Below the pieces are notes generated by a model, which ran no database searches, was not told the DNA's origin, and worked only from the letters and a program-made list of their open reading frames with translations. The translations under genes were made by a program, and so were the position numbers. This document shows positions 49,301-53,598 of a DNA stretch of 64,000 nt, one piece after another. Origin of the DNA: Shigella phage sb4; sequence record PQ666542; one strand, written 5' to 3'. How positions within the stretch are numbered: the stretch's first letter is position 1; every line of letters starts with the position of its first letter.

Positions 49301-49618
49301 TTACGCTTTGTCATTTTCTTCTCGGTTAAATCGGTGTTTGCAATGACGGCATTTATAATGAAGAATACTACTCTGCCAATGAATCAATTGAACCTGTTCA
49401 GTACCACATTCAGGACAATTATGAACGTTTTTAGAAGCCCTTTCGCGACGTTCAACCATAGCCATAATGGCATCCCAAGCTGGAGGTTTAAAGTCTAAAT
49501 CATCACAACCATGAATCTTTCCACGAATTTCCAGATCGTCTTCTTCACCAGCCATAATAATTTTTATTAGACTGGAATTACTTGAAGCTGCAATATCTTC
49601 TAATAGACGCTTTTTCAT
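49301..49618 (-). CDS. hypothetical zinc-ribbon-like protein, 105 aa
   Basis: track ORF; CPECG...CRHCKH. Confidence 0.45.
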
Positions 49619-50544
49619 TTCAATACCTCAATAGCATTACGTAAACCATTTGCTTTTGCATTAAGAGCTTTTAACAATTTGGTGTGTTCGGCGATCAGGG
49701 CTTCAACTTCAATTAAACGAGCATTGAGGTATTCACGTTCTTCGCTCAGGTTAACAACCTTTTCTACTTTAGGCTCTTTTACAATTGTCTTATATGAATT
49801 AGGGTTCTTCAGTTTAATTAGAATGCGTGAACTGTATAACATTGAACCATTATCTTCGGTTTCGTCATACATTTCTACTACGTCCATGATTTTTAACATC
49901 ATGCGGAGTTTATAAGACAACGAACGAATAGTTTTGTTGTGCTTATTAATTTCTCTAGAGTTCATGGTGCCGAGATTACGTGAGTAATAATAAGGAACCT
50001 GGATATTAATTAACACTGATGAACCACCTGGCTTATGTGTTACTTCATCAGCAATAACCCAGTCCTTAACATGAACTGTATTTGTACGGTCATCACCAGC
50101 GGTAAATAGTTTGCGAGCATGCTTAAAAAGCATATTCACTTGGGTATTGAATTGACAAGCTAATTTATCAGCAAATTTAGTTTCAGGAATGGTAGATAAC
50201 AAATCAGCCAAATGGGTCTTTTTAACATCGTTAACAATAGTAAATTCAACCAAATCGGTTATAGATGTCGTAGATTTAATGAAGCTCGGCTTCATTAAGT
50301 TTTTAATGTTATCGCGAGCTACAGTAGAAGATAACATACGAGAACGTTTAAACCATTCAAGCAAATTGCCTAATGAATGAGAATAGGCGTTCTGAGTATC
50401 TTTACAGATATGATTTTCCTGGCCAATATATTGAAGGAAATCACGAAGAATATTATTGATTACTGCTCTGTGTCCGATCTGATAATTACGGTGTTTAGCA
50501 ATAAGACTGTCAAAGTAATCAATAAAATGTTCACGAGTTTTCAT
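49615..50544 (-). CDS. coiled-coil protein, paralog family member 1
   Basis: track ORF 309 aa; MKTR start; C-terminal coiled coil. Confidence 0.5.
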   Translation of the reverse strand: MKTREHFIDYFDSLIAKHRNYQIGHRAVINNILRDFLQYIGQENHICKDTQNAYSHSLGNLLEWFKRSRMLSSTVARDNIKNLMKPSFIKSTTSITDLVEFTIVNDVKKTHLADLLSTIPETKFADKLACQFNTQVNMLFKHARKLFTAGDDRTNTVHVKDWVIADEVTHKPGGSSVLINIQVPYYYSRNLGTMNSREINKHNKTIRSLSYKLRMMLKIMDVVEMYDETEDNGSMLYSSRILIKLKNPNSYKTIVKEPKVEKVVNLSEEREYLNARLIEVEALIAEHTKLLKALNAKANGLRNAIEVLK

Positions 50545-50596
50545 GTTCTTCTCACTTGGTTAATGATTTATATTCCAAGCCATCCTTGGCTTTAAA

Positions 50597-51598
50597 TTAC
50601 TTAATTAACTGTAAAGCTTGTTCAAGACGATCCAGGCGATTAACAGATTCTTCCCAAATCCTTTTAGCTTGCTCATATTCTTTCTGCGCTTTATTAGAAA
50701 TTTCTAGAGCTTCTTTATAAGCTTTTTCTAATGCAATAACTTCTGGACGAATTTCTACCGGTTCAGGCGAATCGTCAAGAATATCCATTAGTTCCTCAAG
50801 GGTAGTTTCTTCTTTAGGAGTATTCACAATTTCCTCACATTTCTGTTGATAAATTTCTTTATCAGTAGGTGAATAAGCACATTTCACTTCATGAAGACTA
50901 ATTACAATTTTATATCCTTCCCAACCACCCATATTTTTGAAAGGATATGTATGAATACTTTTTACAGTTTCCATACAATCCAAAGCCGTTTCTAATTGAT
51001 GAGTTATAGTGCTAGCAATTGAGAAAAATTTATTAATATTCTTTTGGTTAGCTTCTGGTGTAAAAAATTCATAATTCACAAAAATATCTACTTTATTTTT
51101 ATCAATCTCATATTCTTTTACGATAATCATATCAGAAGCCAAAGGATGAATTTGACGATAATCACCATAACATAATTTAGAAGCTGATTTTAAAAGTTTC
51201 TTCTTGAAAAGTCTGAAATTACTAATCCAACGACGAGTAAAAATATTCTTAGGGTCTTCTTTAATATTAAGATGATAAGAATTAACATCACCGAACCAAT
51301 TGTATCCTATTACACCTTTAGTTCGTTTAATTTCTTTCCCAAAATTACCAAGAATATCCCGATTAACCAAATATGAAAGAAGACGAGACCCTTTAAAGAT
51401 TATCTTAATATCATCTTTATCTACGCGGCTAGAAATTTCACGAACTTCATGAATAAATTTACTGGAAGAAACAATACTTGCATCAATACTGCTGAGCCAT
51501 TGATTGATAATAGAAAGAACAGCATTCTGACTAGACATGGGTTTAACTTTATCATTAATAACGCTATTGAATGATTTGATATATTCGTTACGAGTCAT
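50597..51598 (-). CDS. coiled-coil protein, paralog family member 2
   Basis: track ORF trimmed to MTRNEYIKSF; promoter upstream. Confidence 0.5.
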   Translation of the reverse strand: MTRNEYIKSFNSVINDKVKPMSSQNAVLSIINQWLSSIDASIVSSSKFIHEVREISSRVDKDDIKIIFKGSRLLSYLVNRDILGNFGKEIKRTKGVIGYNWFGDVNSYHLNIKEDPKNIFTRRWISNFRLFKKKLLKSASKLCYGDYRQIHPLASDMIIVKEYEIDKNKVDIFVNYEFFTPEANQKNINKFFSIASTITHQLETALDCMETVKSIHTYPFKNMGGWEGYKIVISLHEVKCAYSPTDKEIYQQKCEEIVNTPKEETTLEELMDILDDSPEPVEIRPEVIALEKAYKEALEISNKAQKEYEQAKRIWEESVNRLDRLEQALQLIK

Positions 51599-51626
51599 AA
51601 TAATCTCCTCAGTAGAAAGTAAGAAC

Positions 51627-51656
51627 ATTATACCACATCCTTGTGGTAAAGTAAAC
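51627..51656 (-). promoter_or_regulatory. T4-type early promoter
   Basis: complement GTTTACT (51650-51656), 17-bp spacer, TATAAT (51627-51632). Confidence 0.5.
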
Positions 51657-52684
51657 TAGTTTAGTGCATTTAGTGCATTGTTCAGTTTAGAACGTTGCTT
51701 CGTAAGATTTTGAACCCTTGATTGAGCTTTTTCTAGCATCTTTTCAGCTTCTAACACTTCATTAGTTGCTTTAACGAGTTCATCATCTACTGCCTTGATG
51801 GACTTTTCAATCGCATCCGCGTGCCATTTTTCAACAGGTTTAAGACTCGGATTTTCAATAGGAAGAAAATTCGCTTTATTGAATTTCCATGCATCCTTAT
51901 TACCTGAGCTATACATCCAAACTTTAGGATCGTTTGATGAGTAATTGGATAAATTTAAATTTAAGTGATCTTGCACTTCCTGCTTTTTCTCTTGCGGGAC
52001 TTCGTCCTTTCTCAAAAAATCGTATTTAAATGAAACGATCATATCAAGTTCATATGTTGTTGTGTCTAATTTAAATCGCTCAAAACGAGGTAAAATCTTA
52101 GACTGAACAGCGGCAACAACATCCATATACTTAAATGCTTCTGTCAACTGCGATTTAAGGCATTCGCAAATTGAAAGAGAATTTTTTGTATTAGGTTTAA
52201 AGCTAATTCGCGCAGTTCTGTTATTTTCTTTTAATGGTCTTACTTCCATCTGAAGAGTATAACCATCAAATTTCAGGTTCTTTAAGTTAATGTCAGAACC
52301 TTTTAATCGACTAGCAGTCGACAAAATTTGCTTTAATTGTCTACGGAATAGAGCAATAAATCTCCATTCAATACGATAATGGTTTGGATTGAAAAATCCA
52401 GATGATAAATCGACCTTACTTTGACCAACGCCTTGAACAAATAGAGGATTTTTATAATCAATAGTATTACAGAAATTGGTGAGTTGCTCACGAGCCGTCA
52501 TTTGTGTAATATATCCTGCTTTACTAAAATTACTCACCAATTCACTGCTATTTAGATATTTAAAGTGATGAATAGCACGATTAACTTTATCAGGATCTAA
52601 ATTATTTTCACACAAAAATGTCATAACATTACGAGTATCGCTGGCAGTACGAACAATATCTTCAATTTGAGAACGAGTTTTCAT
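51656..52684 (-). CDS. coiled-coil protein, paralog family member 3
   Basis: track ORF 342 aa. Confidence 0.5.
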   Translation of the reverse strand: MKTRSQIEDIVRTASDTRNVMTFLCENNLDPDKVNRAIHHFKYLNSSELVSNFSKAGYITQMTAREQLTNFCNTIDYKNPLFVQGVGQSKVDLSSGFFNPNHYRIEWRFIALFRRQLKQILSTASRLKGSDINLKNLKFDGYTLQMEVRPLKENNRTARISFKPNTKNSLSICECLKSQLTEAFKYMDVVAAVQSKILPRFERFKLDTTTYELDMIVSFKYDFLRKDEVPQEKKQEVQDHLNLNLSNYSSNDPKVWMYSSGNKDAWKFNKANFLPIENPSLKPVEKWHADAIEKSIKAVDDELVKATNEVLEAEKMLEKAQSRVQNLTKQRSKLNNALNALN

Positions 52685-52692
52685 TGTATTCC

Positions 52693-53598
52693 TTAAGATT
52701 TAAGTAAATCGACAATTTTAATTAACATTTCACGCTCAGATTTAGCTTTACTACTCAATCCAGATAGTCTGAATATTTCATCATCATATTGCTGAATAGA
52801 AATTTTCAGCTCTTCAATTTGCTTATTAAAATAATCAATTTGTTCAGAATGTTTTTCATTACTACGAACTGGTACAGGTTTCGTAGGCAATGTAGTTGAA
52901 CTGGATTCATCCGGGCGATAAATTAAAATACAACTTGAACCAATAGGGCATTTTGCACCAGATGAATATTCTAATGTTCCAGCTTCTTTTTAAACTTCAA
53001 AAGCTAAACAGAGATGATGACCCATATTGACATAATCTGTAGAGTGAGCTCTGATATAATAATCATCGTCACGAGTACTAAATTTAAAGCATTTAAGGTC
53101 TTCTGTATTATTGGTCTTAAAAATCATTTGTTTATCTAGACCTTTAGCTAATCGAGCGCCTAATGCTAATAATCGTCGTTGATTTTCCCACAAATCCGCA
53201 ATCATTTGATCGAATGATAATTTTTGCATCAGTCGGCCATAAATGTCATATCCTTTATTATAATTACGAAGGATTTCACTCGCGTTAATACGAGACAATG
53301 CTCCAATTTTATTAAGGGCTTTCATAATGCGATTAGATAAACTCATTCCAGATCCGTTCGTTCGCTGCAAATGTTTTTCTAATCCAAATCCAATATCAAC
53401 TTTAAATTTATCTAAAATTTCGGCATGAACGTCTCTGTCAATAACATTCAAATCCAAAGTTGGGTTAAATCTATGAAAAAATTTATCTGGCTCTCCACGG
53501 CGAAATACAGTCCATTCATTCATCATTTTTTTATTAACTAAAGATTTAATTACTGCATTGACATTATTAATTACTACTGACATATTTTCCTCACTCAA
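52693..53598 (-). CDS. coiled-coil protein, possible fourth family member; in-frame TAA at 52990-52992
   Basis: track ORFs 52990..53598 and 52693..52890 in same frame; 33 open codons between; C-terminal coiled coil. Confidence 0.45.

Follow-up and report, generated by a model that had tools for sequence, protein, structure and literature searches.

In this work we identify four adjacent genes of Shigella phage sb4, a T4-like phage (Tequatrovirus), as the block nrdC.3-nrdC.4-nrdC.5-nrdC.6, within a window of 64,000 nucleotides taken from record PQ666542. The explanation of the locus that we consider likely as a whole is that these genes are diverged duplicates making up an anti-defence island, and that the TAA codon interrupting one of them is part of a noise layer extending across the entire window. 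The closest genome match to the window is Shigella phage sb3 (96%), and gene identities were assigned through synteny and 94-97% identity with annotated T4-like genomes, together with family matches. All four open reading frames are present as originally predicted, on the minus strand. The orthologues of nrdC.3 (49615..50544; 309 aa; family A, with precomputed Pfam PF26897 on relatives) and nrdC.4 (50597..51598; 333 aa; family B) both belong to phrog_1435, the profile of which covers them at full length (E 4.5e-111 and 3.6e-163, respectively); the nrdC.4 product shares 97.6% identity with the sb3 copy and has just 6 representatives in 1.84 billion proteins. The nrdC.5 orthologue (51656..52684; 342 aa; family C) is matched over residues 1-342 by Pfam DUF7235 (PF23882; E 5e-123, score 410.8 bits, gathering cut-off 30), and its orthology with T4 NrdC.5 is further indicated by 319 identical residues of 342 (93%), equal length and its slot between nrdC.4 and nrdC.6. 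The nrdC.6 orthologue (52693..53583; 296 codons, one of them nonsense; family D, with PF26899 on relatives) had been predicted as a split fourth frame at 52693..53598, and it is indeed a single frame with one TAA at 52990-52992, the two halves of which match phrog_2257 in order (profile positions 1-190, then 210-303). As with nrdC.5, the likeness of the other three genes to T4 nrdC.3, nrdC.4 and nrdC.6 is one of orthology, by synteny and family match. Scans of the four proteins against Pfam, NCBIfam and PADLOC returned DUF7235 on nrdC.5 alone, with the remaining matches weak and below cut-off, and neither solved structures nor Pfam domains offered a biochemical clue for any of the four.

Two gene starts required attention. 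The true start of nrdC.6 is the ATG at 53583, which is preceded by GAGG and is annotated so in sb3 and T4. For nrdC.4, an ORF lister offered a longer alternative beginning at 51628, but this ATG overlaps the -10 element of an early promoter of T4 type, and the start was therefore placed at 51598. The promoter (51627..51655, minus strand) is predicted from its consensus match only (TTTACT, a 17-nt spacer and a TG-extended TATAAT), and would drive nrdC.4 and probably nrdC.3.

The proposal that the four genes form a tandem family in an accessory region is supported at the level of very divergent paralogs, through profile-profile comparison, a specificity scan and predicted secondary structure, and it fails at the level of pairwise alignment. 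All-vs-all comparison of the four proteins had been set beforehand as the test, with a lack of significant similarity to count as refutation; since BLASTP found nothing significant (best E 0.37, with the top matches in the coiled-coil tails), the original prediction is formally refuted on its own terms. Such a result would be expected if the four proteins were unrelated and owed their likeness to an AT-rich make-up and to a coiled coil at the C-terminus, a reading that also draws on the direct profile comparison of nrdC.5 with nrdC.6 (5.6%, not significant). Profile-profile alignment with hhalign nevertheless linked nrdC.3 with nrdC.4 (99.1%, P 4e-18), the merged nrdC.3+4 profile with nrdC.5 (97.3% in global mode over 300 columns, P 6e-11) and with nrdC.6 (87.7%, P 4e-7), and the nrdC.3+4+5 profile with nrdC.6 (93.8%, P 3e-8). 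Reversed profiles, which retain the same composition and helical periodicity, served as the control and gave P ≥ 0.019. The matches are collinear end to end over 260-300 columns, the tail not being the sole region involved, and the local nrdC.4-nrdC.5 and nrdC.3+4-nrdC.5 matches span the globular part (e.g. columns 64-258). Among all ORFs of 150 aa or longer in 66 kb of sb3, the top non-member found by the nrdC.3+4+5 profile was nrdC.6, and the top non-member found by the nrdC.6 profile was nrdC.4, such that neighbouring families are each other's best cross-matches. Together with predicted secondary structures that lie in register and Foldseek matches that two structural models have in common, these results make common composition an improbable explanation, and support the view that all four genes descend, through old duplications and strong divergence, from a single protein restricted to Straboviridae. 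The membership of nrdC.6 depends on merged profiles and predicted structures, and the four-way link as such comes from the profile and structure comparisons made here; databases file nrdC.5 and nrdC.6 in separate families.

AlphaFold models were obtained for two of the four proteins, nrdC.5 (pLDDT 65) and an intact relative of nrdC.6 (pLDDT 76.5); the former is of moderate quality, and its input alignment took in the nrdC.3 and nrdC.4 families. Both models, along with the alignment, agree with the shared architecture that had been suggested, presenting one predicted order of elements: N-terminal helices, a helix pair, a β-hairpin, a helix, a second β-hairpin, a disordered linker and a long C-terminal helix. 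Their secondary structures agree at 69% of profile-aligned columns, as compared with 36-46% at shifts of at least 20 residues, and Foldseek matched both to the same BFVD entries, which are uncharacterised proteins of other Straboviridae (probability 0.99-1.0), with TM-scores that are low (0.3-0.5) because the long helices are flexible. One of the BFVD matches, from Yersinia phage fHe-Yen9-01, was considered as an nrdC.3 orthologue and rejected, as it is gp111 of a Tegunavirus, adjoins an nrdC.10 homologue and is missed by the sequence profiles. In Foldseek the nrdC.5 model additionally matched proteins of tail completion and tail termination, too weakly to carry weight (E about 0.005-0.02), and sequence searches of the PDB gave weak matches to GCN4 and keratin. 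The amphipathic C-terminal coiled coil attributed to the family is supported for two members, in which long terminal helices carry a heptad pattern (nrdC.5, helix 286-341, shuffle p 0.000 in 200 shuffles; nrdC.6, helix 243-295, p = 0.005); in the same crude test nrdC.3 was not significant (p = 0.34) and the top-scoring window of nrdC.4 lay away from the C-terminus.

The in-frame TAA of nrdC.6 (52990..52992, minus strand) is present in the sequence as described, at codon 198 of 296, where the helix ahead of the last β-hairpin ends, but it is not specific to this gene. It represents a private TTA→TAA change at a position that encodes leucine in sb3 and T4, and the variant was found in 0 of 475 phage records, while searches for exact matches among viral, metagenome and genome contigs yielded none. 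Across the window 25 annotated genes carry in-frame stops, 31 in all, and among these genes are those for DNA polymerase, clamp loader, topoisomerase and gp47 (the products affected include gp43, with a stop at 32045, gp44, at 33817, gp62, at 33456 and 33162, gp39 and gp47); because several of these genes are essential, the TAA is not to be taken as a feature of the family. The stops are accompanied by an excess of other private changes. In gp43 the window has 21 nonsynonymous changes and 1 stop, compared with 1 private change in sb3 and 4 in T4, and private transversions are evenly spread along the window at 7.9 per kb, as against 1.7 per kb in sb3. These observations describe a layer of selection-blind substitution affecting about 0.8% of sites, and blind application of its spectrum predicts 26 TAA and 7 TGA in-frame stops where 26 and 5 are observed. 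Exact copies of six window proteins, including the 87-aa NrdC, are likewise absent from about 15 billion public proteins. As to the source of the stops, errors of nanopore or homopolymer type were rejected, since new bases copy their neighbour 185 times against 183 expected and have no sequence context, as were miscalls linked to base modification, there being no enrichment near G or C.

We therefore read the nrdC.6 TAA as sequence noise, and not as pseudogenisation or readthrough. Genuine decay of an accessory counter-defence gene whose target is absent would be in keeping with the dispensability of nrdC.6, with the T4 reference copy, which itself has a 1-nt deletion removing the coiled coil, and with the interruption of the nearby nrdC.1 and nrdC.8 in the window. 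Against this, similar single-base stops occur in essential genes as densely as blind substitution would predict, so that the nrdC.6 stop is uninformative on selection, and the variant is missing from the phage records and all three contig collections; we regard decay as highly improbable. More remote still, to the point of being barely credible, is the idea that full-length NrdC.6 is made by readthrough or recoding of the in-frame TAA and TGA codons. Its one attraction is that TAG is never used (0 in-frame TAG stops in the window, where the noise model predicts about 8), which is odd for pure noise. However, the stops take the place of ten different amino acids (TAA for E, K, L, Q, Y and S; TGA for W, G, C and R), which are exactly the one-step neighbours of these codons and reveal no consistent amino acid; TAA also terminates the same genes at conserved positions, a tRNA gene search of the window found none, and, alongside the stops, private amino-acid changes are in roughly 20-fold excess in essential proteins. 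Given such a layer of substitutions, biology is not to be read into any one in-frame stop, frameshift or unusual residue of this window.

The family had been described as uncharacterised, which no longer applies to one of its members: NrdC.5 of T4 counteracts the SIR2 defence Dsr1, and T4 nrdC.5, plasmid-borne and alone, restores plating on cells carrying dsr1 (PMC9391042). From 93% identity with the tested T4 allele we infer that NrdC.5 of the window may likewise neutralise Dsr1, although the two differ at about 23 residues, some probably belonging to the noise layer, and the demonstrated activity is that of the T4 allele. Genes in the vicinity point in the same direction, as nrdC.1 inhibits Septu (bioRxiv 10.1101/2025.11.20.689424) and gp49.2 inhibits OLD (PMC13096335), and the T4 nrdC.1-6 fragment can be deleted (PMC9825161). 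The family might instead have its role in host take-over or phage physiology, with an indirect effect of NrdC.5 on Dsr1, given that the literature examined yielded no mechanism for NrdC.5 and that nrdC.6 is conserved in the manner of a housekeeping gene (dN/dS 0.05); but restoration of plating by nrdC.5 by itself, the deletability of the entire block in a laboratory host and the presence of defence inhibitors in the flanking genes make this unlikely.

We thus favour a model of counter-defence. The block lies between nrdC and tk, in an island that is dispensable and transcribed early, and it adjoins genes for immunity inhibitors. Each protein would begin with N-terminal helices, followed by a small alpha/beta core (the helix pair, the two β-hairpins and the helix between them), a disordered linker that varies in length and, at the C-terminus, an amphipathic helix, with the variable globular part possibly binding a defence sensor or effector and the terminal helix possibly oligomerising the protein. 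NrdC.5 would neutralise the Dsr1 SIR2 NADase, by extension of the T4 result, and NrdC.3, NrdC.4 and NrdC.6 may be sister inhibitors directed at other defence proteins or variants, with blocking taking place early enough to forestall a trigger of defence by late proteins such as the capsid protein. An analogy, in function only, may be drawn with DSAD1 of SPbeta-like phages, described in two reports as a phage protein that binds and switches off the defence-associated sirtuin DSR2 (PMC11087589, PMC11263360), and it is binding of this kind that is proposed for NrdC.5. No relation between the two proteins in sequence or fold was found, and DSAD1 acts in another host and phage group on a target triggered by the tail tube protein. 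The islands by which T-even phages otherwise counter defence (dmd-tifA-adfA; gp49.2 and nrdC.1, next to this locus) similarly consist of small, early, dispensable and fast-evolving genes, each disarming one host system, but mutual homology of adjacent genes, as proposed for nrdC.3-6, is not reported for them in the literature examined. A Dsr1 inhibitor with three homologous neighbours provides three concrete candidate counter-defence proteins, and nrdC.3-6 would constitute a natural series for examining how one scaffold is retargeted. A more speculative extension, which we offer tentatively and hold to be doubtful at present, is that NrdC.3-NrdC.6 and remote Straboviridae relatives are one modular family of immune-sensor blockers, each paralog or allele being tuned to a different capsid-sensing receptor of the Dsr1/Avs7 type or to another defence protein, such that the array might mirror, on the side of the phage, a defence island of the host and diversify as genes duplicate and alleles are exchanged.

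The diversifying function originally suggested for the array is partly borne out by the evolution of its members. nrdC.3 and nrdC.4 evolve much faster than neighbouring genes: amino-acid identity between T4 and sb3 is 60% for nrdC.3 and 89% for nrdC.4, compared with 99.6% for DNA polymerase, and dN/dS is 0.29 for each, as against 0.01-0.09 for core genes. Because these gene-wide values fall below 1, positive selection is not demonstrated. Among 653 phage records nrdC.3 occurs in three allele classes, and the window copy shares 97% identity with that of sb2 and only about 58% with the T4/T2 allele. sb3 has an intact nrdC.6 frame, as do 689 phage records covering at least 80% of the protein, while the T4 reference is frameshifted near its 3' end, as opposed to the nonsense codon seen in the window. 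In favour of the kinship of the four genes, the order of the block is conserved across genera, with gene types running nrdC.6-nrdC.5-nrdC.4-nrdC.3 in Tequatrovirus, nrdC.6-nrdC.5-nrdC.3 in Mosigvirus and nrdC.6-nrdC.5-nrdC.4 in Gaprivervirus.

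The window represents a segment of a Tequatrovirus (T4-like) genome, and its interval 49615-53598 matched 659 phage records, the closest being Shigella phage sb3 (96.1%). Through synteny with sb3 and phage T4, the four minus-strand ORFs were identified as nrdC.3 (49615-50544), nrdC.4 (50597-51598), nrdC.5 (51656-52684) and nrdC.6 (52693-53583), flanked by nrdC.2 and the membrane protein gene nrdC.7, and the locus is an already known T4 gene block. The ORF coordinates first proposed hold overall, with two starts refined: nrdC.4 begins at 51598, because the start of the longer ORF (51628) falls within the -10 element of a match to the T4-type early promoter immediately upstream of the gene (51655-51627, minus strand; TTTACT, 17 nt, TG-extended TATAAT), and nrdC.6 begins at the ATG at 53583, which has GAGG ahead of it, rather than at the TTG at 53598. 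The spacer between nrdC.4 and nrdC.3 contains a small hairpin (50575-50589). Relative to both sb3 and the window, nrdC.6 of the T4 reference (NC_000866) carries a 1-nt deletion, at about record positions 51996-52065, that shifts its frame and results in an annotated 275-aa protein without the C-terminal helix; T4 record KJ477684 encodes the full 296-aa protein, and the deletion reflects either variation between strains or an error in early sequencing.

The original prediction described these genes as tandem paralogs, an idea that is correct, yet is revealed only by profile and structure methods. Pairwise BLASTP among the four proteins yielded no significant match (lowest E 0.37, in the C-terminal helices), and in PHROGs nrdC.3 and nrdC.4 share phrog_1435, with nrdC.5 (phrog_2351; Pfam DUF7235) and nrdC.6 (phrog_2257) placed separately. 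Alignments for the families of nrdC.3, nrdC.4, nrdC.5 and nrdC.6 (A, B, C and D, respectively) were built from database relatives together with Mosigvirus and Gaprivervirus copies, and then compared profile to profile. A matched B at 99.1% (P 4e-18, 282 columns), A+B matched C at 97.3% in a global comparison (P 6e-11, 300 columns), and D was matched by A+B at 87.7% (P 4e-7, 265 columns) and by A+B+C at 93.8% (P 3e-8, 259 columns); the direct comparison of C with D was not significant (5.6%, P 0.002, 245 columns). Reversed-profile controls, which preserve composition and helix periodicity, gave P of at least 0.019 across all comparisons. As a test of specificity, all ORFs of 150 aa or longer within the first 66 kb of sb3 were compared with the profiles; the top non-member match was nrdC.6 for the A+B+C profile and nrdC.4 for the D profile, and no additional family members were found among these ORFs. 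Two motifs, F-K-x-S/G-R/x-L/I-S/T...A/V-R/S-D/E-x-L/I-x-N-F/Y and A-x-K/R-L...G-D, occur in all four proteins. The four-way family link across nrdC.3-nrdC.6 is a modest novelty.

The proposed shared architecture was borne out by an AlphaFold2 model of NrdC.5 (alignment input from the C, B and A families; pLDDT 65, pTM 0.47) and a model of an intact NrdC.6 (D family only; pLDDT 76.5, pTM 0.65). In both, N-terminal helices lead into a helix pair and a first β-hairpin, then a helix and another β-hairpin, after which a linker predicted with low confidence connects to a long helix at the C-terminus. DSSP assignments agreed at 69% of 239 positions in the profile-derived C-D alignment, compared with 36-46% under shifts of at least 20 residues. 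As for the predicted C-terminal coiled coil, heptads are clear for NrdC.5 and NrdC.6, but not significant for NrdC.3, and in NrdC.4 the best-scoring heptad window lies away from the C-terminus. In BFVD both models matched the same uncharacterised proteins at near full length (probability 0.99-1.0), from Erwinia phage Cronus, Klebsiella phage Mineola and Yersinia phage fHe-Yen9-01, with other matches in T4-like phages of Acinetobacter, Pectobacterium, Enterobacter, Citrobacter and Aeromonas; in the PDB only helical hairpins and coiled coils were matched. The fHe-Yen9-01 match is most likely gp111 (313 aa, 16382-17323), since no other 313-aa gene lies in the examined part of that Tegunavirus genome; gp111 adjoins an nrdC.10 homologue. 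As gp111 was undetected by the family sequence profiles, the family appears, from these predicted structures, to reach across Straboviridae, past the range of sequence methods. A second fHe-Yen9-01 protein, gp94 (292 aa, 9459-10337), shows weak sequence similarity to the family (E 4e-6 against the NrdC.6 profile), and in Tegunavirus the members seem to be scattered instead of lying in tandem.

Arrays in three genera occupy an identical slot in identical order, namely D-C-B-A in Tequatrovirus, D-C-A in Mosigvirus APCEc01 and D-C-B in Gaprivervirus VR20 and CJ20. Of 50,697 phage records, 653 had a tblastn match to A, 553 to B, 581 to C and 741 to D, all carriers being enterobacterial T4-like phages; nrdC.4 has just six representatives in 1.84 billion clustered proteins. 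Between T4 and sb3, two clean genomes, amino acid identity and dN/dS were 60% and 0.29 for nrdC.3, 89% and 0.29 for nrdC.4, 95% and 0.13 for nrdC.5, 97% and 0.05 for nrdC.6, and 99.6% and 0.01 for DNA polymerase (gp43). Alleles of nrdC.3 fall into three discrete classes (identity at least 90%, about 75% and about 58%), and these classes and rates are consistent with fast evolution and allele exchange, though no proof of positive selection.

The family had also been considered uncharacterised, which does not apply to NrdC.5, as its T4 version has a known counter-defence role: a T4 clone bearing a deletion lost plating on ECOR17, and plating was restored either by deletion of host dsr1 or, on dsr1-carrying cells, by nrdC.5 on a plasmid (Srikant et al., PMC9391042). 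NrdC.5 of the window is 93% identical to that of T4. Two proteins encoded nearby are likewise inhibitors, gp49.2 of OLD (PMC13096335) and NrdC.1 of Septu (bioRxiv 10.1101/2025.11.20.689424), the T4 nrdC.1-6 fragment is deletable (PMC9825161), and, according to a 2026 preprint, a phage major capsid protein triggers the TPR sensor that Dsr1 shares with Avs7 (PMC12803255). Together these findings suggest that NrdC.5 may be an early protein that blocks Dsr1 ahead of the late capsid protein, and the four-way family link nominates NrdC.3, NrdC.4 and NrdC.6 as candidate counter-defence proteins that might act in a comparable way on other systems.

The in-frame TAA noted in the fourth ORF (52990-52992, minus strand) is present, but we conclude that it is not meaningful, being one of many selection-blind changes in the window. 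It results from a single T-to-A change of a TTA (Leu) codon in sb3 and T4, was found in none of 475 phage records with the same 61-nt stretch, and was likewise absent, as an exact match, from viral, metagenome and genome contigs. Translation of the window against sb3 ORFs revealed 31 in-frame stops in 25 sb3-annotated genes (26 TAA, 5 TGA, 0 TAG), several of them essential, including DNA polymerase gp43 (32045), gp44 (33817), gp62 (33456, 33162), topoisomerase gp39 (1090), gp47 (38955), dda (15136), rIIA (8001, 7251), nrdD (46046) and endonuclease VII (47104), with a further example at 17890. Those in nrdC.1 (49075-49314; TAT-to-TAA at 49185), whose T4 counterpart is the reported Septu inhibitor, and nrdC.8 (54051-54575; 54455, 54263) are private single-base changes of the same kind as in nrdC.6. 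At least five apparent frameshifts also occur (srd, modB, nrdD and others). In a three-way comparison of gp43, private changes numbered 32 synonymous, 21 nonsynonymous and 1 stop in the window, versus 32, 1 and 0 in sb3 and 69, 4 and 0 in T4. Private transversions, at 7.9 per kb versus 1.7 per kb in sb3, are evenly spread and mostly to A or T, with no sequence context and no tendency of the new base to copy its neighbour. Applied blindly to coding sequence, the excess spectrum predicts 26.3 TAA and 6.8 TGA, against the 26 and 5 seen. None of six exact window proteins occurs among about 15 billion public proteins, the 87-aa NrdC, identical in T4 and sb3, included. From the stops in essential genes, the excess of private changes, the fit of the blind spectrum and the absent exact proteins, we conclude that about 0.8% of window bases are uniform, A/T-biased changes never passed by selection, possibly introduced by errors in sequencing or assembly, or by an artificial alteration of some kind; no viable phage can be encoded by the sequence as written. 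Recoding of the stops is unlikely, since they replace ten different residues, TAA also ends the same genes at conserved positions, and no tRNA gene lies within the window. The same spectrum leaves unexplained the absence of in-frame TAG (about 8 expected, Poisson P about 3e-4); counted in any frame, half as many TAGs are created as expected (22 versus 44).

Elsewhere in the window, the interval between gene 49 and nrdC (47348-48810) has the sb3 arrangement, unlike that of T4 (pin, 49.1-49.3), and contains a 106-aa ORF (48091-48411) equal in length to the T4 OLD inhibitor gp49.2. What looks like a terminator-promoter pair lies upstream of nrdC.10: a strong hairpin rich in GC (AGGGAGCC-TTCG-GGCTCCCT, 56102-56121) is followed by a minus-strand T-run and then by a promoter-like site (56071-56043).
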